In this document: piece by piece, positions 18,323 to 64,000 of the stretch | Layout of the letters: the number at the start of each line of letters is the position of its first letter | Position numbering within the stretch: the stretch's first letter is position 1 | From: an uncultured virus (IMG/VR IMGVR_UViG_3300017724_000001) | Lineage: Duplodnaviria; Heunggongvirae; Uroviricota; Caudoviricetes; Crassvirales | Virus record (IMG/VR): IMGVR_UViG_3300017724_000001 | Direction: 5' to 3' (one strand) | DNA: 64,000 bases | Notes under the pieces: generated by a model | The model's input: only the letters and a program-made list of their open reading frames with translations | Databases searched by the model: none | What the model was told of the DNA's origin: nothing | Translations under genes and position numbers: made by a program

Positions 18323-21300
18323 ATGGCTAAATGTTATAATAGAAATGATCCGGGATACCAAGCATTAAAGGATGAATATGGTACTGATATCAAAACATCT
18401 AAGGTTATTAGTGACTGGCAACGTGTTAATGATTCTGATGCGTTTCCTAGTGTTGTCCAAGCTCTGACTATGGTTAAAGACCAAGATATTGCATTCTCAT
18501 TAAAAAGAAAAGCATTTGGAGAAAGCGTGCTCAATAATTTAAGAAGAGAAAGAATAGGTAGCAATTTAGCAGGGCAGTTTTTAATTAATAATTCAAATCC
18601 TCAGACATTATCATATGATGAAGCTTTTTTACAAAGTAATCTAAAAAGGTTTTACAGATACTTAGAAATTAATAACATACCAAAAGATTCATTTACAGTA
18701 ACAAGAACGCCAAAAAGCTATAAGATTGAACCTATTAATGATATGTTCTCTGCTAGAGATATACTTGAAAGTTCAAGATCATGGGACACCAATAGATCAA
18801 GAGCGGTTGTTATGCATCTTAAGAGAATGTTTCCGCAGATACAAGTTAAAATGTTATCTGTTGCACAAGCAAGAGTAATGTATGAATCATTACCAAAAAC
18901 TAAAACCAATAATGTTCCTTTTAATGAGATAAATTCTTTTTATATGGATGGTGTAGCTTACTTAATAAAAGGTAGGGTTACAGATGAAATAGCAATTGAA
19001 GAAATGCTGCATCCTTTTATAGATGCAGTAAAGATGGAGAATGAAGAATTATTTAACTCACTTCTTGATGAAGCAGTAAATAATTTTCCAGAACTATCAG
19101 CAGAAATTGAAGATGCTTACAATAGTAGCACAAGAAACTTTACAGATACAGAAAGAGATCTTGAAATTGTAACACAAGCATTATCAAGACACTTCAAAAA
19201 AGAATATGAAACAACACCTACAAAAGGATTCTTAGCAAAAGTTAAAGAACTTCTTGAGTGGTTTAAAGGAGTAATTGAAAACCTTAATAAATATATTACT
19301 GGTAGAGAGTTACCTGTATCTGCTATTAAACCGGGTACAAGTCTAAGTGATATTGCTAAACTACTTAATACAGAGGGTATTCAGTTTAAACTAGAAAAAA
19401 GAGTTGATGGTAAATTAAGATATAGTTTATCACCATCTAAAGAAATACAAGTCAAAGATGCACTAGAAAGAGCTAATGATACGCAGAAGCCTATTATAAT
19501 GCAGCTATTTAATGTAGCACAGAGTGAAAACTCTGGTCTTGTTGATTCTCTGTCAGCGTCAGTAAAAGATGCAGCTGCTGGAGATTCAATTGTAACACTT
19601 AATAAAGAAGATCATACATACATAAATTCTAATGATTCTGATAAAGTATATACATCAGTAACCACAGCTATAAAAGGAAAACTTTCACCAGATAAACAAG
19701 TTGCTCATAAGATTAACTTGGATATTGGTAATGAGGTTGACACACTATTAGATGGTGTTATTGCTAACCTTTCTTTTGAAGATGCATATGCTGCACTAGA
19801 GACAAATAACATATCTAAAGATAAAGCTAAAGATACTTTTGATACTCTTGCTAGTATTATGGATAGTTTAAAAATGAAAGGTGCAATTGTGTTATCTCAA
19901 GTTGTTTTGTTTGATGAAGCTTCTAAGATGGCGGGTACTGCAGATGTATTTATTATAGATCAACATGGTAGAATTAACATCATGGATCTTAAGACTACAA
20001 AAAATGAGTTAAGTAAAGAGGTAGCTTTAAATGATAAAAAAGGAAAGCGTGTAGGAAATCAATATAAAGAAAGATTTTACGCCTTAGAACAAGACTCAGT
20101 GTTATATCAACAAGGATTAGCAAAAGAATTATCAACAGAGCAACAGCATAACTTACAAGTTAATGTTTATAGAAGAATGGCTGAAAATATGGGGTATGAA
20201 GTATCTTATGATGAATGGGCCACCTCTACAATACACTTTAAAGTTGGTATAGAAGGAACAGGATCTGATCAAGTGTTTGATGGATCAATTGAATTTGATA
20301 GATGGGTTCCTCATCCTGTAAGTCAAAATCTTAATTTAGTAGATGCTCTTGTACCAGAAGTAAGAAACTCCTATCAAAAAAGTAAATTAGAAAAAGATCA
20401 AGAAGGTTCATACAATAAAATATGGAATGGTAAGGACCAGAAAGAGGAAACAACTGAAGATGATAAAAAAGCAGCAGAAAACTATGATGAATATAATGCT
20501 GCAGCTGGTTTACTAGATACATATCAGAAAGCACTTATTGAAAAAAGGGATATGATTCCTTTGTTGAAGTCTAATATATATATGGAATCAACAAAAGAAA
20601 ATGAAATTGATCAAATATCTAAAACAATAGCATATATAAACTTAGCTATGGCTGGTAATGTTAAAGGCCAATCAAAAGCTTTGTCTGAAGTTTTGCTTGA
20701 TGCTTTATCTCAAATAAAAGATTTTAGAGCTTATGTAGAAAATCCTAAGAATATAAATTCTCCTGAATATGTTTCTTATGTTTTAAACTTTGATAAGTAT
20801 ATGAAAACATTTGAAGGGCTTTTTATACTTAAAGATTTAAAAGGTTTAAATAATACTCAAAAGAATTTAATTTTATCATTACAACAACAACTTAATTTAC
20901 TTAGTGGTGCTGGTACTGACACAGGAGGAATAGTAGGTGAAGCACTAAAAGACTATGTTAAAGAAATGGTGAGGCTAAAATCAAATAGAGATTTTGGTGG
21001 TGAAAATAGTTTATATACTGAAAAAGACTTAGAGCTTTTGATGGAAAAAGCTGCAGATATCAGTGACACTGAATATCAAACTAAAGATATGGCAACATCT
21101 CCAGATGTACTATTGGCTACAATGGATAAAATAAGAAAAGCCCAAAATCAAAAGCTATTAGATCTTGTAGCTCAAAGAGAAAACCTTATAAGAAAGGCTG
21201 GACAAAAGCTTGCAAAGTTATCTCCTGAATTAAAACTTGACGAGTTATATGAATTCATGTTAGAGTATGATGCAGACGGTACTTTTAATGGTAGATATGT

Positions 21301-24100
21301 AACAAAAATAGGAGAACAATATTGGGCTATACAAAATGAACTCAGAAGTCAACTTTATGATAATGAAGGTACACCATATCAATACAGACCTGTTTATAAT
21401 TTAGAAACAGCAAGTAAAGAAGATATAGAATACAATAAAGATCTAGCTGCTAAAAAGAAAGCATATGGTGATTTTTATATGGCTGAGCAAAAAAGAGATG
21501 ATGGTACATTACGTCCTTCAGGTATGTATCACAAGTACACCCAAGAGTTTATTGATATCAGAAATAAATATGAAGTGTGGAGACCTGGTGCTGAAACTAA
21601 TCAAAGAGGAAGTTGGGAAAAGAAAAAAAATATTTCAGATGCAGACTATGCAGCTTATGTTGCAAAATATTATCAGCCGGTTGAATATACCAGAGCTGTA
21701 AGAATAAAGGGAGAGGCAACAGGGCAAATTATAGAAGACCGTCAAGATATGATGGTGCCTAAAGCAGAGTATAGACAAATACTAGAAACCACCCTTGATG
21801 GGCGTAATATGAGAAACGCCAAGTATGATGCCATAATGAGTGGTACTGATGCAAAATCTATAGCCCAAAGGGAGTTTTATCAATTATACATAGATATGTA
21901 TGAGAATGACTTGCTTAAGAAAATACCTATTGGGCAAAGTGCACAAATGTTGGGTAGAGTTCCTTTAGTACAGAATAGATTGATGACTGATGTAAAAGAG
22001 AAAGGGACTTTGTTTACCAAGCTATATGCTAGTATGACAGAGAGTAGGGCTTGGAATATGTTTCAACAAACCTCTACTCAAAAAAATGTTATACTAGATA
22101 ATGAGGGTTATATTATTGATCAAATGCCTATTTACTATACCGGTAGACCTAAGCTTGATACTGATATGGCTGATTTACAAAAAGAAATTGATCTTCTTAA
22201 ATCAAAGTATAAAAAGAATGAAATCCAAGATCAGCAGTATAAAAAGCAAATAGCTGTATTAAATGGTAAAATGGTAAGGCTCAGAGCAACACCAAGTAGA
22301 GGACAGATTAGCACAGATATGGCATCTAGTTTACTTAAGTTTAGTGCAATGGCTCAAAACTATGAAACAATGGGCGCTGTAGATGATACCTTAAAAGCTT
22401 TTGTTAAGGTAATTGAAAACAGAACATATACTCCTGCTCCTGGATTGAGATTAAATCTAGTAGCAAAAGTAAAAGATAAAGTTATAGATAATTTAGGTAC
22501 TAAAGCTAATACAAGTACTCAAGAAAAAAATGTAGTACGTAGAGCAAAGAAGTTTATGTCTATGATTCATTATGAAAATGAAAACATTACTAAGGGTGCT
22601 GTAGATAAAATTGCAGATGGTCTTATTCAGTTGTCTTCTTTGTCATATGTAGCGTTTAACCCATTTGGTAACTTTAATAACTACTTGATTGGTAGAATAA
22701 ATAACAATATTGAATCTATTGGTGGTAGATTTTATAGTCAAAAGGCATTTAAAAGAGCAACCTGGGAATTTAATAAGAGAGCTATTCCAGGATTAGTCAA
22801 TAGAACAGCACATGGTGGAGCAGAAGATTTACTTGACGTAGTAACATTAGGTGTTATACCAGGATTAGCTAAAGCTGACTATGATAAAAAACTACCTAAT
22901 AGTAAGTATGAAGCTTTTGTTGATATGTTCAGAATGATGGATAGTATGTCTGATATACGTGAACAAAGTAGAGCTACTGAAGATGGTAAAAGTTGGTTTG
23001 ATAGAGCAACTGAGTGGGGTTATGTGATGCAAGATGCTGCTGAATATAATTCACAGACCAAAGTGGGTATGGCTATACTTATGGACACTATGATTAGAAA
23101 TAGTAAAACAGGAGAAGAGCTGTCATTCTATGATGCATTTGAATACGATACAAAAACACATAAGAATAAAATTAAAGATGGTTTTGATATAGTAATCAAA
23201 AGAAATGGACAAGAAGTAGCTTATAATGATGATATAAGATATGAAATTAGAAATGAGATTAGAGAAGTTAATAAACAAATCCATGGTAACTATGCCAAGG
23301 AAGATAGAATTGTTCTTCAGTCACATACACTTGGTGCATTAGCTATTCAATTTAAAAAGTGGTTGGCCCCAGCAATTAGAGCAAGGTATCAAAGAGAATA
23401 CTTTGATGAAAATCTAGGATGGATGGAAGGTAGATATAGATCTGCTTTATCATTCTTAAATTTTGCAAGAAAAGAGTTGGCTCAAGGTAATATGAACTTT
23501 AGAACAATGGGTAAAGAATACCTAAACCAACAAGTTAGAGCATATACTAGTGAAAAGTTTGGAGAAGCAAGAGATTATGGTGGAGGTGGTAACATAGATC
23601 AAAGAGCTAAGAATAGACTATTTGGTTTCTATAGAAGTATGGGTGATTTAGGTATCATGTTTAGTGTTATGTTTATTTCTTTGCTATTTGATGATTTATT
23701 ATCTGGTGATGATGATGATAGTGATACTGAAAAGAGATTTAAAAATTTAACAAGATATCAAGCAGATAGAGTATATAAGGAACTTGTTTTATTCATGCCT
23801 TCTTTTGCAGGGTTTGAACAGGTAGAGCAAATGTTTAACTCACCTATTGCTGCATCAAGATCAGTAAGTGAAATGTCTGAAGCTTTTGAAATGATTTTTG
23901 TTGGAGGTTTCAAATATACAATGGCTAAAGCAACCGGAAATGAAGAAGCATTTTATGCTAATTCTAATTATGTATATCAAAGAGGTAAAAGAAAAGGAGA
24001 ATTAAAGGTATATAAAAACATTAAAGATGTATTCCCACTACTATATTCTATTCAGAAATGGGATTCATACCTTAAAAACTCTGATTTCTATATTAAGTAA
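18323..24100 (+). CDS. Giant virion protein (1925 aa) with a degenerate zincin-like segment and a PD-(D/E)xK nuclease-like domain
   Basis: EEMLH replaces HExxH. GTADVFIID...IMDLKT and downstream QVNVY fit the RecB/Cas4-like motifs. There is a hydrophobic helix near the C-terminus, and the gene follows the vRNAP gene. Confidence 0.7.
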   Translation: MAKCYNRNDPGYQALKDEYGTDIKTSKVISDWQRVNDSDAFPSVVQALTMVKDQDIAFSLKRKAFGESVLNNLRRERIGSNLAGQFLINNSNPQTLSYDEAFLQSNLKRFYRYLEINNIPKDSFTVTRTPKSYKIEPINDMFSARDILESSRSWDTNRSRAVVMHLKRMFPQIQVKMLSVAQARVMYESLPKTKTNNVPFNEINSFYMDGVAYLIKGRVTDEIAIEEMLHPFIDAVKMENEELFNSLLDEAVNNFPELSAEIEDAYNSSTRNFTDTERDLEIVTQALSRHFKKEYETTPTKGFLAKVKELLEWFKGVIENLNKYITGRELPVSAIKPGTSLSDIAKLLNTEGIQFKLEKRVDGKLRYSLSPSKEIQVKDALERANDTQKPIIMQLFNVAQSENSGLVDSLSASVKDAAAGDSIVTLNKEDHTYINSNDSDKVYTSVTTAIKGKLSPDKQVAHKINLDIGNEVDTLLDGVIANLSFEDAYAALETNNISKDKAKDTFDTLASIMDSLKMKGAIVLSQVVLFDEASKMAGTADVFIIDQHGRINIMDLKTTKNELSKEVALNDKKGKRVGNQYKERFYALEQDSVLYQQGLAKELSTEQQHNLQVNVYRRMAENMGYEVSYDEWATSTIHFKVGIEGTGSDQVFDGSIEFDRWVPHPVSQNLNLVDALVPEVRNSYQKSKLEKDQEGSYNKIWNGKDQKEETTEDDKKAAENYDEYNAAAGLLDTYQKALIEKRDMIPLLKSNIYMESTKENEIDQISKTIAYINLAMAGNVKGQSKALSEVLLDALSQIKDFRAYVENPKNINSPEYVSYVLNFDKYMKTFEGLFILKDLKGLNNTQKNLILSLQQQLNLLSGAGTDTGGIVGEALKDYVKEMVRLKSNRDFGGENSLYTEKDLELLMEKAADISDTEYQTKDMATSPDVLLATMDKIRKAQNQKLLDLVAQRENLIRKAGQKLAKLSPELKLDELYEFMLEYDADGTFNGRYVTKIGEQYWAIQNELRSQLYDNEGTPYQYRPVYNLETASKEDIEYNKDLAAKKKAYGDFYMAEQKRDDGTLRPSGMYHKYTQEFIDIRNKYEVWRPGAETNQRGSWEKKKNISDADYAAYVAKYYQPVEYTRAVRIKGEATGQIIEDRQDMMVPKAEYRQILETTLDGRNMRNAKYDAIMSGTDAKSIAQREFYQLYIDMYENDLLKKIPIGQSAQMLGRVPLVQNRLMTDVKEKGTLFTKLYASMTESRAWNMFQQTSTQKNVILDNEGYIIDQMPIYYTGRPKLDTDMADLQKEIDLLKSKYKKNEIQDQQYKKQIAVLNGKMVRLRATPSRGQISTDMASSLLKFSAMAQNYETMGAVDDTLKAFVKVIENRTYTPAPGLRLNLVAKVKDKVIDNLGTKANTSTQEKNVVRRAKKFMSMIHYENENITKGAVDKIADGLIQLSSLSYVAFNPFGNFNNYLIGRINNNIESIGGRFYSQKAFKRATWEFNKRAIPGLVNRTAHGGAEDLLDVVTLGVIPGLAKADYDKKLPNSKYEAFVDMFRMMDSMSDIREQSRATEDGKSWFDRATEWGYVMQDAAEYNSQTKVGMAILMDTMIRNSKTGEELSFYDAFEYDTKTHKNKIKDGFDIVIKRNGQEVAYNDDIRYEIRNEIREVNKQIHGNYAKEDRIVLQSHTLGALAIQFKKWLAPAIRARYQREYFDENLGWMEGRYRSALSFLNFARKELAQGNMNFRTMGKEYLNQQVRAYTSEKFGEARDYGGGGNIDQRAKNRLFGFYRSMGDLGIMFSVMFISLLFDDLLSGDDDDSDTEKRFKNLTRYQADRVYKELVLFMPSFAGFEQVEQMFNSPIAASRSVSEMSEAFEMIFVGGFKYTMAKATGNEEAFYANSNYVYQRGKRKGELKVYKNIKDVFPLLYSIQKWDSYLKNSDFYIK

Positions 24101-53837: not shown

Positions 53838-54158
53838 TCACAAAAATCTTAGTGCTCCTCCGTCAACATAAACAAACTCTTGTGCACATTCAGTACACTT
53901 GGCGTTTGATTCATTGCGTAACAAAGTTGGCATGTTACAGTTAGGACAAGGTGTATCACCTTCTTCTATATATTCTTCTATTGCTTTTCTAGATAAACCG
54001 TGTATCATTGCATCATGTGCACCACGGTATTCTAATTCTTGTTGTTGCTCAATAAAGAGCTCTTTCATTCTTCCCATAATGTTATTTATTAAGTGGATTA
54101 TAGTATTTAATTTTTGATTGATCAAATCCTTTGACTGCATCAGCCACCCATTTCTCAT
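53838..54158 (-). CDS. Zn-ribbon protein (likely start MGRMKE)
   Basis: CPNC...CTEC. Confidence 0.6.
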   Translation of the reverse strand: MRNGWLMQSKDLINQKLNTIIHLINNIMGRMKELFIEQQQELEYRGAHDAMIHGLSRKAIEEYIEEGDTPCPNCNMPTLLRNESNAKCTECAQEFVYVDGGALRFL

Positions 54159-55239
54159 CTTGTGTACCTACGTACATAAGTATGTGACATGTAGCTGTCT
54201 CAGTTGGATTTAACCTGAGTAATCTTCCTATTCTTTGTGCTGTCTTTCTTTCATTACCATATGCATGCATAATAATACCTGCTTTTAGACCCGGTATTGT
54301 AACACCTTCTGATAATTGTAACACACAGGATAGCTTATCTATTCTTCCATCAGAAAACAACTCAAGGTTTTCATCTGATTTAGAATTTTTAGAGTGATAA
54401 CTATGCTTACATATTCTATCTGCCTGTTTTTGAGTATTAGCAAATACAATACATTTACTGCTTACATTACTAAGTATACCTTTTACATATGCTTCTTTAC
54501 TTGTGTAATCCATTAGAGCTCTCATACGCATAATTCTACCAAACTGTATTTGTTTGTCTGTATTAGCTTGTGCTAGTCTATTGGTAACATAATCATAGTC
54601 TTTTCTTTCTGATGTATACCAGAATCCACCTGCCTTGTTTTTCTTCTTTAAAGAAGGTAACTTAGACAATTCTAACTGATGTATAATGATCTTATAGTCA
54701 TTAAGTATCTTAGAGTCAGTTGCATCATCCGTAGTAAATGTATATTTAATAGGACAATACTTTTGTACTAACATTCCCTTTTCAGAGGTTGTGTTTTTTG
54801 GTGGTGTACCAGTAAGACCAAGAATTCTACCTGTAAATCTAGCTAGAAATAACTCATGAACATATTTAAGTGAATGACATTCATCTAAATATACTATATC
54901 ATAGTTATTTGGTTCTCTCTTTTTTAATGATATGTATGTAGTAAATGTGATATGCTTAACTAAAGCTTCTAATCCCATCTTACCTAACTCATCTATCCAT
55001 GATTGAGCTACTGAATGTTTTGGAACTACTACCAGTACTTGTATGAACTGATCATAGTATCTTTGAAGGTGCTGTATTGCTATTCTAGTTTTACCTACAC
55101 CCATAGATATGGCTAAGCCACACCTTTTATGTTGCACAGCTATTGCTAATGCATCTTCTTGAACTACGTTTCTAGTTGGAACAGCCGTTCCAGAATTATT
55201 TGCCATAATATTATTGTTATTGATAGTACCATTGTCCAA
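54082..55239 (-). CDS. Superfamily 2 (DExH) helicase (likely start near MANNSG)
   Basis: MGVGKT, DECH, LTGT and QRIGRLLR. Confidence 0.9.
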   Translation of the reverse strand: MDNGTINNNNIMANNSGTAVPTRNVVQEDALAIAVQHKRCGLAISMGVGKTRIAIQHLQRYYDQFIQVLVVVPKHSVAQSWIDELGKMGLEALVKHITFTTYISLKKREPNNYDIVYLDECHSLKYVHELFLARFTGRILGLTGTPPKNTTSEKGMLVQKYCPIKYTFTTDDATDSKILNDYKIIIHQLELSKLPSLKKKNKAGGFWYTSERKDYDYVTNRLAQANTDKQIQFGRIMRMRALMDYTSKEAYVKGILSNVSSKCIVFANTQKQADRICKHSYHSKNSKSDENLELFSDGRIDKLSCVLQLSEGVTIPGLKAGIIMHAYGNERKTAQRIGRLLRLNPTETATCHILMYVGTQDEKWVADAVKGFDQSKIKYYNPLNK

Positions 55240-55280
55240 GCTAATATTCTAATTAGCCTGTCTTTTTGATATTGTTTCAT
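55164..55280 (-). CDS. Small membrane peptide (38 aa), not in ORF track
   Basis: MKQYQKDRLIRILAWTMVLSITIILWQIILERLFQLET. It overlaps the helicase start. Confidence 0.4.
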   Translation of the reverse strand: MKQYQKDRLIRILAWTMVLSITIILWQIILERLFQLET

Positions 55281-55286
55281 CTCTCT

Positions 55287-55350
55287 TTGGTGTTAAAGGT
55301 TTGCGCCTATTTTTATATGCTTGCGCCTATTTTTCGTTGGTGTTAAAGGT
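55287..55350. repeat. A-B-B-A arrangement of two 14-nt direct repeats
   Basis: TTGGTGTTAAAGGT at 55287 and 55337; TTGCGCCTATTTTT at 55301 and 55321. Confidence 0.9.
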
Positions 55351-55423
55351 GGACCCTACAGGACTTGAACCTGTGACCTATCCGTTATGAGCGGAGTGCT
55401 CTGACCAACTGAGCTAAGAGTCC
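55350..55423 (-). tRNA. tRNA with CAT anticodon (Ile2 or Met), no encoded CCA
   Basis: GGACTCTTAGCTCAGTTGGTCAGAGCACTCCGCTCATAACGGATAGGTCACAGGTTCAAGTCCTGTAGGGTCCA folds as a cloverleaf. Confidence 0.9.
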
Positions 55424-55512
55424 TGGTAGCCGGAGTGGGATTTGAACCCACACGGGCATTACTGCCCAAAGGATTTTAAGTCCTTCATGTCTACCAATTT
55501 CATCATCCGGCC
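55424..55512 (-). tRNA. tRNA-Leu(TAA) with long variable arm and encoded CCA
   Basis: GGCCGGATGATGAAATTGGTAGACATGAAGGACTTAAAATCCTTTGGGCAGTAATGCCCGTGTGGGTTCAAATCCCACTCCGGCTACCA. Confidence 0.92.
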
Positions 55513-55517
55513 ATTTG

Positions 55518-55591
55518 TGATCCCACTAGGATTTGAAGCTAGAACCTACAGCTTAGAAGGCTGTTGCTCTATCCAGTTGAGCTATAGGACC
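55518..55591 (-). tRNA. tRNA-Arg(TCT), with a C in place of conserved G53
   Basis: GGTCCTATAGCTCAACTGGATAGAGCAACAGCCTTCTAAGCTGTAGGTTCTAGCTTCAAATCCTAGTGGGATCA. Confidence 0.85.
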
Positions 55592-55597
55592 ATAAAG

Positions 55598-55867
55598 TTA
55601 TGATCTTGAGCCTGAGAATCCTAATTCATAAGATTCTTCTGGGTGTTCTTCTATCCACATGTGACAGTTTCTGCAAACTGGTAACCATGTAGATACTTCC
55701 AAGTGATATACACCACGACCGTGTTTATGATGAACATCAGTAGCCTGTACAGTACATTTATCTATTTTTGCATGACAGACTGGATTGTCCGTTAAATACT
55801 GCCTACGCTTTTTAGAGTAAGCAGCATTTATTTTGGACATTTTGTTTGAGACTTTTTTAATTGCCAT
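55598..55867 (-). CDS. Small HNH-like Zn-binding endonuclease
   Basis: CHAKIDKC...ATDVHH...WLPVCRNCH. Confidence 0.75.
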   Translation of the reverse strand: MAIKKVSNKMSKINAAYSKKRRQYLTDNPVCHAKIDKCTVQATDVHHKHGRGVYHLEVSTWLPVCRNCHMWIEEHPEESYELGFSGSRS

Positions 55868-56384
55868 TTGGTTTTAAAGTAAAAAAGTTATTTGGTAACA
55901 AACCCACTGACATAAATTTAAGCACTATATCTTCATAGTTGATACCTAAATCTTTAAATGTAAGAGTGTTTTTGTAATCATCTAACGTTTCCTCAGCTGG
56001 CACATCTGCAATTGCAAGAGCCATAGGACTGTGTGGAAATGTTTTCCTAAGATAAGCATTAATTCTCTTATTACAAAGTGTTTGTTTCCAGGCATTGATT
56101 TCTCTTTGCCCACGTTTCCAAACTTTTGTAATGCGTCTTTTCTTATCCCAGTGCAGTTTAGTAACTTCTTCAGGTTTATAAACATTAAGGCCATGCAACA
56201 CACGTTTAAACAAAAAATGTTGATATGGATTAAGTTTATTATACTCAAAAGAGTTAATAATTGAAGGAGGATGTAATTGATATTCATCCAGAAGGCCTAA
56301 GTATTGATAACGCTCAATACGTCTACTTAAGATTAGTTCTTTTTCATTGAGTTTTAGTTTTGAAATTTGTTCATTAGATAGCAT
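55857..56384 (-). CDS. Hypothetical protein
   Basis: ORF track, 175 aa. Confidence 0.6.
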   Translation of the reverse strand: MLSNEQISKLKLNEKELILSRRIERYQYLGLLDEYQLHPPSIINSFEYNKLNPYQHFLFKRVLHGLNVYKPEEVTKLHWDKKRRITKVWKRGQREINAWKQTLCNKRINAYLRKTFPHSPMALAIADVPAEETLDDYKNTLTFKDLGINYEDIVLKFMSVGLLPNNFFTLKPNGN

Positions 56385-56439
56385 ACTTGTTTGATTTATT
56401 TAGTTATGAATTTATTAGTTGTATTTAGTAAGAGGTGTT

Positions 56440-56470
56440 AAATAGGCTGAGGTTTTTACACCCCAGCCTT
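56440..56470 (-). terminator. Putative intrinsic terminator
   Basis: Minus strand AGGCTGGGG-TGTAAAAA-CCTCAGCCT then ATTT, just after the stop of 56482..57096. Confidence 0.55.
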
Positions 56471-56481
56471 TAACAATTTAA

Positions 56482-57096
56482 TTACAGTTCAAAAGTTTCT
56501 GTTTCTTCTTCAAGAACTTCTTCTTCTTCTGTTTCTACTTCAGCAACAACTTCTTCTTCAGTTACTTCCATCTCATTGACATCTTCTGTCTCATCAGTGG
56601 TTGTATCATCAGATTTCAAACCAAATGCTTCTGCAGTTGTTGCTTTTTTGATCTTAGACTTGTCTAATTCAAAAGAGCTTTCATTAGCTGCACGAATAGC
56701 ATCACCATTAGTATGCTCAATCAGAATATCTTGTGCTTCTACATCATAAGTATATTCTGTTTTCCTATAAATAGGTTGTCCGTCTTGACAGCATATAATA
56801 CCAGTGTCACCTGCATATTTCAGGTCTCTGTCTGGATTTGTGTTGTTAAAAGGTTCTAAAGACTCTATTGCTATGATTTTACCAGGTAATGTTTTACCTA
56901 AATTTTTAGCATAAGAGGTTAAATTCTCTGTTGTACCCATAATAAGAGTGGTAAGATTTCTTTCTCTTAACCAACCACCTTTACCAATTGATACACTTTT
57001 GTATCCTAATCTAATGAAAGAATACTCTGGATTGTTTTTACTTAAGCGTACAACATTACCCATGTCATCCGCTAGGACTTCTACTTGATTTTGCAT
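56482..57096 (-). CDS. Hypothetical protein with long acidic tail (paralogue of 60215..60676)
   Basis: Shares GKII..E.LEPFN, LKYAGD, PIYR.TE and HTNG..IR with its paralogue; tail EEEEVLEEETETFEL. Confidence 0.7.
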   Translation of the reverse strand: MQNQVEVLADDMGNVVRLSKNNPEYSFIRLGYKSVSIGKGGWLRERNLTTLIMGTTENLTSYAKNLGKTLPGKIIAIESLEPFNNTNPDRDLKYAGDTGIICCQDGQPIYRKTEYTYDVEAQDILIEHTNGDAIRAANESSFELDKSKIKKATTAEAFGLKSDDTTTDETEDVNEMEVTEEEVVAEVETEEEEVLEEETETFEL

Positions 57097-57140
57097 TTTT
57101 AATAAAATTAAATGATTAATAAAATAATTGTGTGTGATGA

Positions 57141-57413
57141 TTAACTATCATCAGAGTGAAAATACGGGTCTTCCAGTTTTTCATAAGCTTCAATCTCATC
57201 TAGTGCAGGCTCATATTCTTCAATATTTTCTATTGCTTCATCTGAGACAGCTTTACCAGTTGCTTTTGCAAACTTATTATACCATGGATCAACCACTTCC
57301 TTTGTGTATGCGGAGCTAAGGCCATTTAGATCATTGTACTCTTCATCAGAGAGAGAAAGGTACTGTTCTAAGGAACATTCTATGATTCTGCCATTAGGAA
57401 GTTGTATTATCAT
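57141..57413 (-). CDS. Small acidic hypothetical protein
   Basis: MIIQLPNGRIIECSLEQYL. A TATCTTTG element lies upstream at 57433-57440. Confidence 0.65.
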   Translation of the reverse strand: MIIQLPNGRIIECSLEQYLSLSDEEYNDLNGLSSAYTKEVVDPWYNKFAKATGKAVSDEAIENIEEYEPALDEIEAYEKLEDPYFHSDDS

Positions 57414-57523
57414 TATCTTATCTAAAGTTTATCAAAGATAATAATATAACTTAATCTGTGTCAGAAATATAAAGTGAATTTGGACTTAACTCAAAAATAA
57501 AAAGCATAAATATAGCTAACGCA

Positions 57524-57775
57524 TCATAATATGGTTAACTTATTACCTATTCTTTTTATATATTTATATGATTTTAGCTCTTTTATCCATCTTTTAACTG
57601 ATGATTGACTTGAGCCACAGTCATCTGCAAGCTTACTAATTGATGGCCAACAAATTCTGTTTTTATTGGCATAACAGCATAATATACTGTACAAGCCTTT
57701 AGCTTGAACTGACAAGTTAGGATCTGTACATACTTTATGTTTAACTATACCATATCTATTTGATTCCTTCAACAT
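57524..57775 (-). CDS. Helix-turn-helix (HTH_36-like) protein
   Basis: LSVQAKGLYSIL...CWPSISKLADDCGSSQSSVKRWIKEL. Confidence 0.8.
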   Translation of the reverse strand: MLKESNRYGIVKHKVCTDPNLSVQAKGLYSILCCYANKNRICWPSISKLADDCGSSQSSVKRWIKELKSYKYIKRIGNKLTIL

Positions 57776-57968
57776 GGTTCTTAATTATAATGAGCATGGC
57801 CATATTGGTATCATGTTCATCAGTAAGATCCTTGTCTTTAAAGGCATACTTTTCTTGCATGTACATGCCAAAAGGTACATTAAGACCTCCAACCCTTTTA
57901 AGTGATTTGTCTAACTCTAACCATGATTTATGTTCAGAGTTCAATAGTTCCATTGATATCTTTGCCAT
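57756..57968 (-). CDS. Small hypothetical protein
   Basis: ORF track; overlaps both neighbours. Confidence 0.5.
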   Translation of the reverse strand: MAKISMELLNSEHKSWLELDKSLKRVGGLNVPFGMYMQEKYAFKDKDLTDEHDTNMAMLIIIKNHVEGIK

Positions 57969-58518
57969 CTTCTTGAAAATTTAGTTCTGTTTGTTTTACT
58001 TTTTTAAAATAAGTTATGAATCTCTTTTGTATGTTAAGAGCATGCAGAGGACTAACGGTAGTTTCTACAAACTTAAGGTTTTTATCATCATCATGATACA
58101 TTAAATTCACTTTTATAGTAGAATAAAACGGGTCATAAGGATCAGAACCCCAAGAAGAGTCACCAACTACTTGACCATATACATAATAGTCACTATACTC
58201 ATCACCTTTACCTAGTAATCCCATGTCTTCAAGAACATCTAATTCAAATTCACTGCCTTGATGATAGTTTGGTGGTACTAGTCTAACATAACTACCAATC
58301 TCTGTTGGTACAAAAGTTCTTTCTGTTAGCATAAGATGTATTATAGCTTCTAGAGCTGAATCTTTAACTTCTTTAGATATTATATCTGTTATAAATTTTA
58401 AATTGTTTGGTTTATTGATAGATTTTTGATCAAATAAACCTGAAAGGATGCCTTTTAATACTTCATCCTGTACGTGATATTGTTTTGCCATTGATTTTAT
58501 ATTGTAATCAAAGACCAT
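57934..58518 (-). CDS. Hypothetical protein (likely start MAKQY)
   Basis: ORF track. Confidence 0.6.
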   Translation of the reverse strand: MVFDYNIKSMAKQYHVQDEVLKGILSGLFDQKSINKPNNLKFITDIISKEVKDSALEAIIHLMLTERTFVPTEIGSYVRLVPPNYHQGSEFELDVLEDMGLLGKGDEYSDYYVYGQVVGDSSWGSDPYDPFYSTIKVNLMYHDDDKNLKFVETTVSPLHALNIQKRFITYFKKVKQTELNFQEDGKDINGTIEL

Positions 58519-58642
58519 ACTGCAAACAAGTATGAAATGTAACAGTAATAGTCTTTGATCTGATTAAGAACACAGCCTCAATACCTAGTATTAATATAAT
58601 ATATAATTACTGGTATTGTTAGTGGTCCATATACGAGACTTT

Positions 58643-58954
58643 TTATTTTCTTCTTTGGAAGATTATAGTTAAGAAAGGCAACTTCAATTCCCAATGACGA
58701 GTTACTTTCTCTATGTCAAGACCAATTCCAGGTCTTGCGTTTACTCTCATCCTAGGCAAAAGGTATGTTCTATCCATATGAATAGCATAGAAGATTGCAT
58801 TGATGAAAGTTAATGCGGTTACAATACCAAAGGCAACTATAAGAATAGGTGACCAAGGTGTGTAATAAACTAGATTAACTAGTACTACTGTCATAGCAAA
58901 AGGTAGAACAGCTACGAAGATTAACTTGATAAGATACTTGAATAAATATTTCAT
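58643..58954 (-). CDS. Membrane protein with two TM helices
   Basis: Hydrophobic N-terminal half. Confidence 0.6.
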   Translation of the reverse strand: MKYLFKYLIKLIFVAVLPFAMTVVLVNLVYYTPWSPILIVAFGIVTALTFINAIFYAIHMDRTYLLPRMRVNARPGIGLDIEKVTRHWELKLPFLTIIFQRRK

Positions 58955-58979
58955 GATATATAATTTAATTGATTAATGA

Positions 58980-59150
58980 TTAACGACCCCATTTGGATCT
59001 CTTGTGTCTCTTTTTAGGTTTCCAATAGTTCTTCTTTGCAAAATGCTTTTTACTTTTCTTGACAGAGCATTTACGAGAAGAACCACATGATTGTAACATT
59101 GGTCCACCTATGAATAGTAATAGAATAAAATATAAGAATTGTTTTTTCAT
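58980..59150 (-). CDS. Small highly basic lipoprotein (56 aa), not in ORF track
   Basis: MKKQFLYFILLLFIGGPMLQS-CGSSRKCSVKKSKKHFAKKNYWKPKKRHKRSKWGR; signal peptide with LQSC lipobox. Confidence 0.65.
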   Translation of the reverse strand: MKKQFLYFILLLFIGGPMLQSCGSSRKCSVKKSKKHFAKKNYWKPKKRHKRSKWGR

Positions 59151-59171
59151 AACGTTTTAGTATTAGATTTT

Positions 59172-59207
59172 AAAAAAGCCAGTCTGTTTTATCCAACTAC
59201 AACTGGC
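59172..59207 (-). terminator. Intrinsic terminator at the end of the non-coding region
   Basis: Minus strand GCCAGTTGT...ACAGACTGGC followed by TTTTTT. Confidence 0.65.
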
Positions 59208-60150
59208 ATGGCTGTCCTATGAATACTCATAGTTAGGAATAAGTCATTTGATTATTAGGTGAGACCAACACCTACCAACATACTCATTGGTTGATTAGAC
59301 ACTATAGGTAATTAACCTACTTCACTTCATGTGTGTCACACTAGTCTAGAATTACCTAGACACGTATCTTTATATTGTTCTTGAGTTAAAAATAAAGAGC
59401 CTGATTACCTCTTAACGACCGTTTACCCGGTTGACGGTGACTGTTACATATTCAACAGACAAGTCAAATACACGGTTTCAGGTTGTCAAACCTTACAGGT
59501 ACATTGACCCTAACGTATACGAGGTTAAGCTGACAAACTACTCCTCTTGGTGTACAAAGTGACACCCAACACTCCCGTTGCCACGGGTTTAAAAGATATA
59601 ACTAATAGAGATATTCACTCCGCTATTTACCTCCATCCATGCGGTAGGATTATTAGTTATTATGATAAAGCTAATAACCATAACCTGTAGTCTTATTGGT
59701 ATTGTTGATCCACATTCCTCTAGTTATGGTATTAGCATATTGAGTTTAGATTACTGTAAGTTCTCTCTTACGCCAGCAACTCACTGGATTAGACCAACCA
59801 TGTTTATACAGGAATTTATCTATGTGCCTGTTTTAATATTGCGGGTAATATGACTCTTATCCTATAGAGGAAGAGACAAAGACTACCCTTGTTATATTGT
59901 TGAGTGTAATAGTTACGCTTGTAGCTACGTTAGCTATATTTATATTATTAGTAACACTCATAGTTACAAGAGTGGTAAAAGGTGGTATTTTGTGGGTATA
60001 AGACCTCACATTCAGAGTGACACACACAAAAAAAATAAAATTACCACACTTTTATAACTTAATTCAATTGTTTTTGACTCTATGTAACAATAGTTAGTAG
60101 TTATTGCTTGAGAGTAGTAACATTCTGTACTAATTCTATTTTTATAAGTG
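59172..60150 (-). ncRNA. Candidate structured non-coding RNA(s), family unknown
   Basis: About 1 kb without a credible ORF, dense in hairpins, bounded by a conserved motif upstream and a terminator downstream. Confidence 0.4.
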
Positions 60151-60188
60151 CTAAACATAGTTTGGGAGCAGACGTGCTGAAAAGCACG
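60150..60188. promoter_or_regulatory. Conserved motif plus GAAA hairpin, copy 1 (candidate virion-RNAP promoter)
   Basis: GCTAAACATAGTTTGGGAGCAGA-CGTGCT-GAAA-AGCACG. Confidence 0.55.
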
Positions 60189-60214
60189 CCCACCCACAAG
60201 CTACTATGTTACAA

Positions 60215-60676
60215 TTACGCATCTACAGTTTCCTGCTTAAACGCATTCAAGCTCTCTACAGCTACAGTAGAGTTGTTAGCCTCTCTTATCTCAGCACCAT
60301 TGGTGTGCTGAATAAAAGTAGACTGAGCATTAAGGTCTGAGGTAAACTCTGTAGTTCTGTAAATAGGTTTATCCCCTTTCATACATACTATCTTTGAGTC
60401 TCCGGCATACTTTAATTTGTATGTCAAATCCTTATCATTGAATGGCTCAAGTTGCTCACGCACAATAATCTTACCTGTCAATGGTTTTGAGTGGTCCATA
60501 GACTCAAGCAAAGCTATTGGGCCTAATACTAATGCTGACAAAGATTTATCTGCATACCAACCATTTCTAAGTTCAACGGCCTTTTGTTCATAGATTACAA
60601 AGCCTATATCTTTGTTCTTTGTTTTACTGATGAATGTTCCGTCTTCATTCTTGCGTACTGTTACTAAATTGTTCAT
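60215..60676 (-). CDS. Hypothetical protein, first gene of the minus-strand block (paralogue of 56482..57096)
   Basis: Clear motif-level similarity to 56482..57096, but without the acidic tail. Confidence 0.7.
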   Translation of the reverse strand: MNNLVTVRKNEDGTFISKTKNKDIGFVIYEQKAVELRNGWYADKSLSALVLGPIALLESMDHSKPLTGKIIVREQLEPFNDKDLTYKLKYAGDSKIVCMKGDKPIYRTTEFTSDLNAQSTFIQHTNGAEIREANNSTVAVESLNAFKQETVDA

Positions 60677-60751
60677 AATGAAATTATTTAATTATTAAAT
60701 TGATTACAATAGTGATAAGGCTATTGCTGAAAAGGTTAAACGGCTTATCCC

Positions 60752-60790
60752 GCTATATATAGTTTGGGAGCAGAGGCATTGAAAAATGCC
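60752..60790. promoter_or_regulatory. Conserved motif plus GAAA hairpin, copy 2
   Basis: GCTATATATAGTTTGGGAGCAGA-GGCATT-GAAA-AATGCC. Confidence 0.55.
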
Positions 60791-61010
60791 GTATATGCAC
60801 ACAGTGAGTCCATCATATATATACTACTGATGAATACAAACAAATCAATGATGTATTGATATTCAGTAGATACCTGACGTAGACACAGTAGCACTACACT
60901 ACTCCGCTTTGCTACCACACAATAGTCATACATTCTTTTTTTTTGTACAACTTTATGCAGTTAGCAAGTGCAGTTAGAGTTCCTATGCAAACATAGGGGG
61001 TACCCGCACT

Positions 61011-61033
61011 GCAAAATTTAGTTGGGGAGCAGA
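61011..61033. promoter_or_regulatory. Conserved motif, copy 3 (no intact adjacent hairpin)
   Basis: GCAAAATTTAGTTGGGGAGCAGA matches copy 1 at 19 of 23 positions. Confidence 0.45.
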
Positions 61034-61193
61034 TCCTATATACCTCTTGAAAGTGCCAAACACACAATTTTTTGGTGGGGCGTAGGGACAATTTTACAGT
61101 AGACGGGGGGATGTTGTGGCTCAAAAATTTTTATAGGACGGGGAATTTTAGTATATTGTTTTTATAGAAGAGTTACTCACTAAACAAAATACT

Positions 61194-61517
61194 ATGGCTG
61201 ATTGGGATGATAACGGGGAAAAAGAAACTGGTGGTTTATCTGACATACAGCAAATGCAGTTAGATGCTATTATATTAGACACAGCATACAACAATGCATG
61301 GATGTTACTGACCGGGGAAATTACTTTTGAAGAATTAATATCAACTCAATTTAGTGAGGGAAAAGAGTTAGTGATGGCTTATGATCCAGACAATGGACCG
61401 AAACTTGAAGAATTAGAAAATATGATAGCGTACTTCGTAGAAGAAGAAGACTATGAGAAGTGTGCTGCATTAAGGGATATAATGTTTAAAGCGTATCCGG
61501 AAACTTATGAAGCTTAG
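61194..61517 (+). CDS. Acidic protein with UVR (UvrB/UvrC)-like motif
   Basis: LENMIAYFVEEEDYEKCAALRD. Confidence 0.65.
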   Translation: MADWDDNGEKETGGLSDIQQMQLDAIILDTAYNNAWMLLTGEITFEELISTQFSEGKELVMAYDPDNGPKLEELENMIAYFVEEEDYEKCAALRDIMFKAYPETYEA

Positions 61518-61522
61518 AAATT

Positions 61523-61732
61523 ATGGCATTAAAAAGAAAAACAACTAAAAAGAAAAAAAGTACCGTAAATAGTTCAGGGAATTATACTAAACCGGGAATG
61601 CGTAAAAGATTATTTAATTCTATCAAGGCTGGTAGTAAGGGTGGTGCACCTGGTCAGTGGTCTGCACGTAAAGCACAAATGCTTGCTAAACGTTACAAAG
61701 CTAACGGTGGTGGATACAAATCCAAGAAATGA
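61523..61732 (+). CDS. Basic protein resembling the N-terminal half of DUF5872-like proteins
   Basis: YTKPGMRKRL...IKAGSKGGAPGQWSARKAQMLAKRYKANGGGY. Confidence 0.7.
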   Translation: MALKRKTTKKKKSTVNSSGNYTKPGMRKRLFNSIKAGSKGGAPGQWSARKAQMLAKRYKANGGGYKSKK

Positions 61733-61950
61733 TGAAAGACCTAACCCTAAATATTGGTAATATAATCTGGATCATAGGTATTATATTCACAATGGGTATA
61801 GCATATAGCCAAATAGCACAATTATCAGATGATATGGTTGTACTAGAAGCTAGGCTAGAAAAAAAAATAAAAATAATCAATGAATCGGAAGATAGGATTG
61901 TAGAATTAGAGAAAGAAATTATTAGGCTACAAGAATCAAGATGTAAGTAA
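61729..61950 (+). CDS. Small TM plus coiled-coil protein
   Basis: One hydrophobic helix followed by a heptad-like segment. Confidence 0.6.
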   Translation: MMKDLTLNIGNIIWIIGIIFTMGIAYSQIAQLSDDMVVLEARLEKKIKIINESEDRIVELEKEIIRLQESRCK

Positions 61951-62192
61951 TGGCAAAGACTAAACAACAAAAAAGTCTAACTAGATGGACTAAGCAGAAA
62001 TGGAGAACGGCAAGCGGAAAGAAATCTTCCGAAACCGGAGAGGTATATGCACCTTCTAGAACTATATCTAAACTTAAGAGTACTAAGAAAGGTAAAAAGA
62101 AATTGGCTGCAGCTAATGCAAAGAAACGTGCTGCTACCAAGAAAGGTAAACAACACGCAAGTCACGGTTTGCATAAAGGAAAGAAAAGATAA
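61950..62192 (+). CDS. Basic protein resembling the C-terminal half of DUF5872-like proteins
   Basis: QKSLTRWTKQKWRT...GEVYAP...KKRAATKKGKQH. Confidence 0.65.
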   Translation: MAKTKQQKSLTRWTKQKWRTASGKKSSETGEVYAPSRTISKLKSTKKGKKKLAAANAKKRAATKKGKQHASHGLHKGKKR

Positions 62193-62485
62193 TGGCAGTT
62201 AAGAAAAAAGATAGTAGATTAGCTAAAGCTGGTGTATCAGGATATAACAAGCCTAAACGTACACCTGGACACCCTAAGAAGTCCCATATTGTTGTAGCCA
62301 AAGAAGGAGATAAGATTAAGACTATACGTTTTGGACAAAAAGGTGCAAAGACTGCTGGTAAACCAAAAGCAGGTGAGTCAGCTAAAATGAAAGCTAAACG
62401 TAAGAGTTTTAAGGCTAGGCATGGCAAAAACATAAAGAAAGGCAAAATGTCTGCTGCTTATTGGGCAGACAAAGTTAAATGGTAG
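62192..62485 (+). CDS. Small highly basic phage protein
   Basis: KSHIVVAK...KTIRFGQ...RKSFKARH...SAAYWA. Confidence 0.7.
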   Translation: MAVKKKDSRLAKAGVSGYNKPKRTPGHPKKSHIVVAKEGDKIKTIRFGQKGAKTAGKPKAGESAKMKAKRKSFKARHGKNIKKGKMSAAYWADKVKW

Positions 62486-62488
62486 GAT

Positions 62489-62704
62489 ATGACAGCAGCA
62501 CAGTTAAGAGAATTGGGATTTACCAAAATGGGTCATCATGAAGATGATGATTGGCCAGAAGGATATTTCTACTTTAGTATTGAGTTTGGAGATATGCTAT
62601 TTCATACCGGGGGTAATGATGAAGCTGAAGAAGATGGGGGATGGTATATTCAAGATCCTACAATGACTATTAAAATATGGCAATATTCGGAAGCTAAAAT
62701 GTAA
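62489..62704 (+). CDS. Small acidic hypothetical protein
   Basis: ORF track; possibly truncated by a 1-nt deletion at its end. Confidence 0.5.
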   Translation: MTAAQLRELGFTKMGHHEDDDWPEGYFYFSIEFGDMLFHTGGNDEAEEDGGWYIQDPTMTIKIWQYSEAKM

Positions 62705-62774
62705 TTGACGTACTTAGACGTAATACGGTTTCTAAAATAAGTATCTAAACTTTTTTTATTTAAACTATTTTTTA

Positions 62775-62782
62775 TACATTTG
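62775..62782 (+). promoter_or_regulatory. Bacteroidota-type -7 element preceded by tandem TAAACT boxes
   Basis: TAAACT...TAAACT...TACATTTG upstream of 62811. Confidence 0.5.
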
Positions 62783-62810
62783 TTTTTATTAACTTATAAA
62801 AAATAGTAAA

Positions 62811-63122
62811 ATGTCAGATTCAAAAACCAATTCAAATATTCAAGACAAAGATCCAAAAATGTCTAAAGAAGAAATGTCAGCACGTAGAGATGAAATTACT
62901 CAATTCTACAATGATAATATTCCACACTTGGAAGTTCAAGCAGATTATGAAACGTTATTAGCTACTATAGAAAAGGCTAGAGCAGAGCGTATGCAAGCCC
63001 AAATGTTTATGGCACAGCAATATGCTGCTCAAAAAGGTGAAGGTGCACCAGATCTTAATACAGAAGAAGGTAAAGCTTTTCAAGAAGCAATGGTAAAAGC
63101 TATGCAAGATGAAACAGCTTAA
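62811..63122 (+). CDS. Helical coiled-coil hypothetical protein
   Basis: ORF track. Confidence 0.65.
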   Translation: MSDSKTNSNIQDKDPKMSKEEMSARRDEITQFYNDNIPHLEVQADYETLLATIEKARAERMQAQMFMAQQYAAQKGEGAPDLNTEEGKAFQEAMVKAMQDETA

Positions 63123-64000
63123 GAGAGGTGATAGAGGCTCAGATGTTAAAACACTACAGACAGCATTAGGGCTTACCGTAGATGGGGTCTTTGGACCCTT
63201 GACAGAAAAAGCTGTAGAAAGATTCCAATTAGATAAGGACTTAATGGTTACAGGAGTTGTAGACTCTAATACATGGACATTAATTCTAAATATGGAATAT
63301 ACTGTTACAGAAGCAATTGACGAAGATACAGATGCTTCATCTCAGTATTTTAAAACAAACTATGATCAAATAATTCATAGACATCACTTACCAAAAGGAG
63401 AATACCTTAAGGGACCTATACAAAATGAATATATATTTTTACATCATACAGCAGGTAATGCTAATCCATATAGATGTATTGATCATTGGGGTAGGGATAC
63501 TAGAGGAAGAGTTGCCACTGAATTTGTTTTAGGAGGTATCAATCACAGAAATGGTGATGATGAGTTTGATGGTGTTATGGTACAAGCTTTTCCTGAAGGA
63601 TGTCAAGGATGGCATTTGGGTAGGACAGGTTCAGGATTTATGAACCGTCACTCTGTAGCATTAGAAATATGCAGCATGGGTTATTTAGATAAAAATCATT
63701 TAACTTATGTTGGGTCTAAATGTACACCAGATCAAGTTGTTACTCTTGATGAACCATTTAAAGGCAAGCTATATTGGCATACATATTCAGAAGCACAAAT
63801 TAAAGAAACAGAAAAGTGGATTAAATATGTTGCTGATAGAGATAATATAGATGTAAGATTAGGACTACAACAATTTATTAAAAAGTATGGTCCAACAAAA
63901 GGCTTTGATTTTCAACAAGATGCATTCTATGGAAAAATAAAAGGTTTATTAACACACACCAATGTTAGGAAAGGTAAAATGGATTGTTATCCTCATCCTG
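63109..64000 (+). CDS. Endolysin: peptidoglycan-binding domain plus N-acetylmuramoyl-L-alanine amidase (3' truncated), not in ORF track
   Basis: Translated by eye: MKQLKRGDRGSDVKTLQTALGLTVDGVFGPLTEKAVERFQ (PG-binding), then YIFLHHTAG, WHLG, LEI and LLTHTNVRKGKMDCYP (Zn amidase ligands). Confidence 0.9.
   Translation, partial: MKQLKRGDRGSDVKTLQTALGLTVDGVFGPLTEKAVERFQLDKDLMVTGVVDSNTWTLILNMEYTVTEAIDEDTDASSQYFKTNYDQIIHRHHLPKGEYLKGPIQNEYIFLHHTAGNANPYRCIDHWGRDTRGRVATEFVLGGINHRNGDDEFDGVMVQAFPEGCQGWHLGRTGSGFMNRHSVALEICSMGYLDKNHLTYVGSKCTPDQVVTLDEPFKGKLYWHTYSEAQIKETEKWIKYVADRDNIDVRLGLQQFIKKYGPTKGFDFQQDAFYGKIKGLLTHTNVRKGKMDCYPHP

Follow-up and report, generated by a model that had tools for sequence, protein, structure and literature searches.

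The question raised by this locus is what a gap of 1064 bp without a credible gene (59151-60214) is doing in the genome of a phage. The DNA analysed here, called the window, is a 64,000-nt stretch of an uncultured virus (IMG/VR record IMGVR_UViG_3300017724_000001) and is part of a marine crAss-like phage. In an earlier reading of the letters alone (the sequence-only reading), the gap had been described as about 1 kb of hairpin-dense sequence, framed like one transcription unit and possibly giving a large phage non-coding RNA. That observation was partly confirmed and its interpretation partly supported. With moderate confidence, we regard the gap as the non-coding head of a leftward, minus-strand early operon, composed of independent modules that yield small RNAs, and not as one RNA. 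Judged by sequence comparison, the whole locus would be a modular early leader that holds a new family of structured phage small RNAs.

The gap is bounded by two minus-strand open reading frames (ORFs), at 58980-59150 and 60215-60676. Under genetic code 11 its longest ORF has 63 aa (59662-59853, plus strand), and scans in which TAG was read as glutamine or TGA as tryptophan opened nothing credible, so that the lack of a credible ORF in this kilobase was upheld. The longest recoded frame (131 aa, plus strand, TGA as tryptophan) is split by a cassette insertion in two relatives (L003 and L005). The stems reported earlier were likewise found in place: TAGGT/ACCTA (59305-59319), GTCTAG/CTAGAC (59344-59361), ACCGT/ACGGT (59418-59438), AGGTT/AACCT (59480-59493), CCCGT/ACGGG (59574-59587), a long stem at 59670-59736 and TGAGTGT/ACACTCA (59901-59960). 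So were the two proposed ends on the minus strand, a first motif copy with its box at 60157-60172 and a terminator with a hairpin at 59178-59207 and a T run at 59172-59177.

The strongest case for an RNA product was provided by one module, named C:

59387..59589, minus strand: module C, about 205 nt, with helices P1-P8 and a closing hairpin AAGAG/CTCTT, then UAUUUUU.

Pattern scans of viral and metagenome contigs yielded 22 distinct aligned sequences of this module, including the divergent L067, L131 and L132. A structure of nine helices and 42 pairs left 99.5% of the 924 cells paired, and seven pairs, spread over five of the nine helices, were changed on both sides; shuffled alignments gave 2.8 +/- 0.6 such pairs, and none of 500 reached seven. 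The covariation score was 0.139, compared with 0.084 in shuffles and at most 0.045 with slid partners. In P1, CCCGT/ACGGG was replaced by CCTGT/ACAGG, P3 passed from GAGG/CCTC via GAGG/CTTC to GAAG/CTTC, and P4 occurred in four compatible versions; compensatory changes are borne by helices distant from the 3' end (P1, P2, P3 and P4). At the 3' end, AAGAG and CUCUU are separated by 9 nt and followed directly by UAUUUUU; in L132 this hairpin was changed to CAAAG/CTTTG by two double compensations, with the U run kept. A tenth hairpin, P5, was present in 22/22 sequences with five different stems. The long-range closing helix first given by RNAalifold was dropped for the local terminator hairpin with its two double compensations in L132. 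A simple terminator scan with limits on loop and stem picked up the 3' hairpin of neither module C nor module D (below).

The fold of module C is specific to the minus strand because its G-U pairs, 92 of the 924 cells, break on the plus strand, where the mirrored structure was only 89.7% paired. RNAalifold gave -42.3 kcal/mol on the minus strand and -30.8 on the plus strand, and the minimum free energy fold of the single copy in the window contained the same helices. The module is non-coding, because its insertions and deletions are not multiples of 3. Comparison of these sequences shows selection for a specific multi-hairpin fold that would work only on the minus-strand transcript, and makes module C a candidate for a new family of phage-encoded, terminator-ended structured small RNA. 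A pseudoknot previously proposed between TTGTCA and TGACAA did not hold up: it is weakened without compensation in two of three divergent lineages (L067 and L132), and a competing local hairpin changes consistently.

One copy of module C was found by its covariance model in the window and one in the nearest record, G001, a complete genome of 114,219 bp with direct terminal repeats that was used as a genome-wide reference. Further copies in the window, G001 and 31 other loci did not exceed chance-level fragments, and the model had no match in L025-type relatives. A 42-nt core pattern of module C and a 23-mer of the conserved element A (below) had no exact match in 185,579 prokaryote species genomes, in scans that miss diverged copies; by these exact patterns, no sign of a host or cellular origin of A or C was found. 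With Rfam 15 at the gathering threshold, only tRNA-Met, tRNA-Leu and tRNA-Arg (55348-55591) were detected in the whole window, and hence no family in the gap; at E <= 10 over 58900-61300, three chance-level matches appeared (E 1.4-5.1; 16.8-20.4 bits, against thresholds of 43-80). Neither the gap region nor its 153-aa neighbour matched any of 50,697 phage records by DNA or protein similarity.

The remaining parts of the locus, in the direction of the minus strand, are the following:

60157-60188, 60759-60790 and 61018-61033, all in one orientation: three box sites, of which copies 1 and 2 have an abutting hairpin.
60157..60188, minus strand: motif copy 1, a 5-bp hairpin CGTGC-TTTTCA-GCACG (60188-60173), then the box TCTGCTCCCAAACTAT (60172-60157).
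60050..60156, minus strand: variable leader from the box to element A, with GTTAC/GTAAC repeats, conserved only within the close group.
59835..60049, minus strand: element A, 215-218 nt of conserved non-coding sequence, about one fifth of the gap.
59748..59834, minus strand: spacer between A and B, with a folding-energy z-score (z) of 0.04 and a cassette point near 59740 (L003, L005).
59663..59747, minus strand: module B, a long hairpin GCTAATA-A-CCATAAC / GTTATGG-TATTAGC, with CAACAATACCAATAAGAC in its loop.
59590..59662, minus strand: module C0, a single long hairpin with a 10-bp stem ATAACTAATA/TATTAGTTAT enclosing CCGC...GCGG.
59167..59386, minus strand: module D, about 215 nt of consecutive hairpins with the terminator GCCAGT...ACTGGC (59207-59178) and UUUUUU (59177-59172).
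58980..59150, minus strand: first ORF past the gap, 56 aa, which directly follows A, C or D in different relatives.

The neighbouring 153-aa protein led to nine related viral contigs, which were compared with the gap at the level of single bases. The part from 60214 to 59835 was kept in all nine. In L007, 59834-59165 was missing, terminator included, and element A was followed immediately by the region in which the 56-aa gene starts. A 115-aa ORF cassette was inserted near 59740 in L003 and L005, a 66-aa ORF lay between non-coding pieces in L006, and a 74-aa ORF stood ahead of the 56-aa gene in L003 and L006. Module C had at least seven different following neighbours across loci and was found upstream of A in L022; in L022, L023, L141 and L142, it began directly past the stop codon that ends the ORF before it. 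Within the related contigs, 59607-59387 was 91-93% identical, compared with 74-86% in the coding flanks. The variable leader was replaced in distant relatives (z = -2.5 on the minus and -3.5 on the plus strand), and no long-range pairing between modules was conserved.

The modules occur apart, in varying order and interleaved with small ORF cassettes. The locus is therefore a cassette hotspot, at which small non-coding modules come and go and change places as small ORFs do. Such turnover excludes one RNA of 1 kb as the unit that is conserved, and with it the idea of one unit framed by motif copy 1 and the terminator, since relatives lack or swap its parts. Of the proposed large phage RNA, the single molecule was contradicted by L007 and by the ORF cassettes of L003, L005 and L006; the wider wording of one or several structured RNAs was borne out by module C and probably by module D. 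The cassette-like behaviour of the non-coding modules suggests that they are selected like accessory genes. Outside the window, a further non-coding cassette of about 75 nt was seen, module E, with a closing stem CTTAGAG/CTCTAAG and a U run (L103:1662-1736, L025:2674-2748 and relatives); in these other phages of the group it directly follows element A, as in the L025-type relatives, or module C.

Module D was found only in the close group of the window and in L142, with its terminator conserved in both. Between these two lineages, four of 58 predicted pairs were changed on both sides; the stems passed from GACAC/GTGTC to GTCAC/GTGAC, from TAGGT/ACCTA to ATGGT/ACCAT, from AGGTG/CACCT to GGAG/CTCC and from CTATGA/TCATAG to CTATATGC/GCATATAG. 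On this comparison, module D probably behaves as a structured RNA of the minus strand. In some relatives, a hairpin like its terminator apparently stands directly ahead of a tRNA gene. Module B (z = -3.46 on the minus and -1.7 on the plus strand) recurs as a hairpin within element A in two relatives, L030 and L041, and at a different place in L047, and it weakly matches the middle of element A (nhmmer E = 1). Module C0 is present in the window, L009 and L006, is missing from L003 and L005, and has a z of -1.2 on the minus and -2.1 on the plus strand.

Folding beyond chance, as the sequence-only reading had supposed, was not found when the gap was compared with shuffles. Sliding 150-nt windows over 59150-59825 gave z from +0.15 to -1.9. 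On the minus strand, the z was -2.8 for A, -3.46 for B, -1.73 for C and -1.9 for D, and -3.7 for the stretch 59167-59747, and two of three coding controls reached -3.4 and -3.6, as low as the modules. Module C by itself had a z of -1.46, with 19 of 200 dinucleotide shuffles folding equally well or better. Hairpin density, measured by folding energy, did not exceed chance.

Part of 58900-61300 was contained in 20 of the 24 sequencing runs listed, seven of these 20 being on record as RNA. Four runs from four studies, all in the form of contigs, were compared with 54000-64000. In X5, a seawater metatranscriptome, contigs covered 59384-59627, over module C, and 59926-60731, over element A and the 153-aa gene; in X10, a seawater metatranscriptome of a second study, they covered 59480-59663, over module C, and 59740-59865, 59868-60048 and 60282-60854, over element A and the 153-aa gene. 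Cover over the 10 kb was uneven in X5 and X10 and even in X3, and X8 gave little cover over the gap; the shortfall in X3 and X8 was not taken as absence. Contigs of X5 and X10 also join 55423, the 5' end of the tRNA-Met gene, to 59180, through 28 nt resembling the terminator hairpin of module D, with five letters between.

The gap occupies the head of the leftward arm, just inside the switch of gene orientation at 60677-61193. Minus-strand genes from about 24.9 to 60.7 kb form the replication module, with ribonucleotide reductase, DNA polymerase, primase and helicases. The early placement assumed by the sequence-only reading fits this early, replication-side arm of a crAss-like phage; as to expression, contigs from RNA libraries overlie parts of the gap. 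The Bacteroidota-type start contexts of the genes suggest a flavobacterial host. A 4607-aa ORF on the plus strand (4484-18307) contains DFDID, a motif of crAss-type virion RNA polymerases, at residue 3621; judged by this motif, the giant protein includes a virion RNA polymerase as a fused part. The ORF is one of three very large ones on the plus strand, the others having 1925 aa (18323-24100) and 1120 aa (1107-4469), and no Pfam or PHROG match was found for any of the three.

Motif copy 1 lies 27 nt past the stop of the 153-aa gene on the minus strand. Its 16-nt box, TCTGCTCCC.A.CTA, occurs in three copies of one orientation within 900 bp and nowhere else in the window or in G001. In copies 1 and 2, a hairpin of 5-7 bp with a loop of 4-6 nt directly precedes the box, with no gap; copy 3 has a conserved upstream block in place of the hairpin. 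Among relatives, the stem covaries in five versions (CGTGC/GCACG, GCCTG/CAGGC and CGTGCAT/ATGCACG among them), with loop and box constant. Read on the plus strand, the hairpins carry GNRA tetraloops, GAAA or GGAA, on a 6-bp stem. By analogy, the three box copies are candidates for early promoters or RNA signals.

A mechanism that would join these parts runs as follows. Transcription would enter from the upstream hairpin-plus-box elements and cross element A, which may serve as a conserved leader or as a DNA control site. Either termination or processing would then release modules C and D as stable small RNAs with a terminator at the end, and part of the transcription would read through into the next gene. 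The RNAs of C and D may act in trans early in infection on a protein or RNA of host or phage, and the two modules may be accessory 'RNA genes' that are exchanged as the adjacent small ORFs are.

Several results weigh against this reading. Folding energies of the gap and its modules were no better than those of coding controls, and element A has no conserved global fold. The evidence for module D comes from two lineages only. The module C family is shallow, with an effective sequence number of 1.13 in the model build; its double changes trace to few lineages (L006 type, L067, L131 and L132), and the structure that was counted had been derived by hand from the same sequences that were scored. 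In the libraries, X3 evenly covers the flanks and has zero cover over 59010-60011. An X5 contig extends 250 nt past the 3' end of module C, and therefore termination at its hairpin would be partial, if that contig is RNA. Contigs of this kind give presence only, without strand, start, end or level, and carry-over of DNA is possible.

Element A is the part for which a rival explanation survives best. Its invariant blocks are ATACCCACAAAATACCACCTTTTACCAC, TATA.ATATAGCTAAC, CTATAGGATAA and TAGTACCCGCAAT, with variable hairpins in between. Its 23-mer was detected in 31 viral contigs, whereas the 153-aa gene is shared by far fewer; this 23-mer is invariant by construction, as it was the search pattern, which does not apply to the remaining invariant blocks. 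An nhmmer profile gave a single hit at each locus and likewise a single one in the window, and 17 of 23 distinct copies were exactly 218 nt long. In most relatives, A ends about 30 nt ahead of a start codon. RNAalifold on 23 sequences gave only -2.38 kcal/mol and 11 pairs, and no conserved consensus fold. Covariation among homologues was found for module C (the seven double changes) and is suggestive for module D from its two lineages.

A small protein in element A (a minus-strand frame of 50-77 aa, open in several relatives) was rejected for its lack of codon periodicity, there being no third-codon-position excess in the variation. The frame also meets an early stop in L026, is shifted by insertions of 18-25 nt in L030, L032, L041 and L050, and conservation of the nucleotides runs on past its stop.

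It is possible, although we hold this only tentatively, that the gap is a control region at the level of DNA: chiefly the boxes and element A would form a replication origin or an operator/promoter complex, the hairpins being protein-binding or single-stranded DNA features and transcription being incidental. Element A has the fixed length and the one copy per genome that such a site would have, and contains three direct TACC(C)AC repeats 10-11 nt apart, about one helical turn, beside AT-rich runs; in distant relatives, four tandem ATCTKCTC repeats stand ahead of it. Its box ATAAATATAGCTAAC occurs only twice in the 114 kb of G001, the second time inverted. In the window, this exact inverted pair lies at 59929-59943 (minus) and 57506-57520 (plus), 2.4 kb apart. 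The inverted copy is directly past the stop of an 83-aa HTH_36 ORF (57524-57775), about 2.3 kb from A, that matches replication-initiator families, and it is kept in 14 of 31 loci, divergent relatives included, the available DNA of the other loci ending at 2.5 kb. On these positions, ATAAATATAGCTAAC is a possible binding site for the 83-aa HTH_36 protein. Folding z of A and of the leader was counted as equal on both strands, and the site adjoins the cumulative GC-skew minimum of the strand switch, which is not independent evidence because it coincides with the change of gene orientation.

This control-region explanation accounts for neither the strand-specific G-U fold of module C nor its end in a hairpin and U run. 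Modules C and D are accessory, being missing from L007 and from L025-type relatives, which an origin would not be. Even within element A, the local hairpins S1 and H3 show changes of the G-U type, and where the copies are not alike the minus strand gives the better fold. A replication origin, by which the sequence-only reading could have failed, is thus set aside for module C; a reading as origin or regulatory DNA stays for element A, because it combines the lack of a conserved fold with DNA-type repeats and the inverted box. Element A may be a conserved leader RNA or a DNA control element. Under either reading, no neighbouring gene is conserved nearly as widely as element A and the hairpin boxes, which offer handles for locating the start of the early region in uncultured relatives.

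A second rival, which we find doubtful, is that the modules are punctuation of the messenger RNA, acting in cis as attenuators, terminators or processing and stabilising hairpins that set the output of the early cassettes, with no role in trans. Modules C, D and E each end in a hairpin and U run directly before the conserved start context of the next gene (ACTAAA..TTATG), module C starts right past an upstream stop in the four relatives named above, and the RNA-library contig that reads through its end would also fit. A terminator, however, needs about 30 nt, whereas module C keeps about 205 nt and eight further helices at an identity well above that of the coding flanks. Its compensatory changes in P1, P2, P3 and P4 are far from the 3' end, and many gene junctions of the same operon are without any such module.

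The preferred reading of independent modules can also be carried further, to an exchangeable array of 'RNA genes', and in this form it appears unlikely. Modules C, D, E and hairpin B would be trans-acting structured RNAs, which the injected virion RNA polymerase would transcribe from promoters of the hairpin type in the opening minutes of infection. Their role would be that of decoys, or of inhibitors directed at host defence or host gene expression, and they would be shuffled between phages like the small anti-host ORFs around them. If true, crAss-like phages would have an RNA-based layer of early takeover, and the long non-coding RNAs of phage phi14:2 (below) would gain a functional context.

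One large structured RNA of about 1 kb, from motif copy 1 to the terminator at 59172, is very improbable. It is true that a conserved hairpin-plus-box and a canonical terminator bound the gap, and that 59167-59747 has its low z on the minus strand; coding controls match such scores, however, parts are deleted, inserted and reordered in relatives with ORFs in between, a hairpin with a U run ends module C internally, and the modules share no conserved long-range pairs. Decayed coding sequence, in the form of pseudogenised early cassettes, is suggested by the turnover of small ORFs at this hotspot and is hardly credible, since blastx of the gap against 1038 ORFs from related loci returned only overlapping spurious frames of the same non-coding elements and no remnants of cassette proteins, modules C and A are more conserved than the neighbouring genes, pairs in C and D change in compensation, and element A lacks codon periodicity.

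Some features around the gap were also recorded. The 56-aa ORF has a hydrophobic, signal-peptide-like N-terminus followed by a cysteine (lipoprotein-like by eye) and a very basic tail, with no Pfam or PHROG match; it is the first gene to be conserved past the variable region of non-coding modules and cassettes. The 153-aa ORF (60215-60676, minus strand) is a paralogue of a 204-aa ORF (56482-57096, minus strand), with 38% identity and E = 7e-33; the latter ends in an acidic tail, and neither had a Pfam or PHROG match. Another ORF-free stretch, 243 nt long and conserved in relatives, occupies 60775-61017 on the minus strand, between box copies 3 and 2. Its z was -4.22 on the minus strand versus -1.15 on the plus strand, and RNAalifold predicted 76 pairs, 18 of them changed on both sides, with many pairs broken and a covariation term of +1.29. 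On this model, it may be another leader RNA.

Among known systems, the large phage-associated RNAs GOLLD and ROOL of Rfam resemble the modules in being non-coding, phage-borne and structured, and no Rfam 15 family reaches its threshold here. A closer likeness is to the terminator-ended small RNAs of bacteria and phages, including those derived from 3' untranslated regions: modules C and D are likewise about 200 nt long, have several hairpins and end in a hairpin and U run, and the start of C right past an upstream stop codon in several relatives is as in the 3'-derived class. In modules C and D, release as discrete species would be needed for this likeness to be complete; Bacteroidota are not known to have Hfq.

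Early promoters read by an injected virion RNA polymerase have a precedent in coliphage N4, whose promoters P1-P3 are hairpin-type (PMC4496689). The likeness concerns the box hairpins only and lies in three copies of the same orientation at the head of the early genes, with a short covarying stem and constant neighbours. Hairpin promoters of N4 have a stem of 5-7 bp and a 3-nt loop, and its virion polymerase is T7-like. Here, in contrast, the polymerase is of the two-barrel type, the loop has 4-6 nt, copy 3 is without a hairpin, and the plus-strand reading also gives a hairpin, with GAAA or GGAA loops.

The nearest analogue is phi14:2, a crAss-like phage of Cellulophaga. According to the preprint, two long intergenic regions among its first early genes (g004-g005 and g005-g006) are transcribed early, strongly and persistently and were regarded by Drobysheva et al. 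as long non-coding RNAs of unknown function; upstream of the early transcripts, those authors found no shared motif (bioRxiv 10.1101/2020.03.07.982082). In both phages, the virion RNA polymerase carries DFDID, and the early, replication-side arm has among its first genes a long region without ORFs; in phi14:2, this region measures 1.7 kb between g004 and g006, former ORF calls having been withdrawn. The phi14:2 region is transcribed in the same sense as the early genes, whereas ours is known from sequence and RNA-library contigs; the modularity and covariation described here do not figure in the portion of the phi14:2 text available. Comparison of the gap with phi14:2 by tblastx gave nothing at 1e-3 and by blastn only chance-level matches of at most 44 nt, and neither the element A profile nor the module C model matched in the first 12 kb of phi14:2. 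The early long non-coding RNAs of phi14:2 are thus an analogue and not a homologue.

Full-text searches of the literature on crAss-like phages and non-coding RNA returned no description other than that of phi14:2. We know of no published early promoter for crAss-like phages, and of no reported early non-coding RNAs besides those of phi14:2. These phages are among the most abundant known, and their early programme is poorly understood. With its covariation, clear strand, terminator and presence in RNA libraries from seawater, module C, at about 205 nt, offers a concrete candidate that can be synthesised for testing the role of such RNAs.

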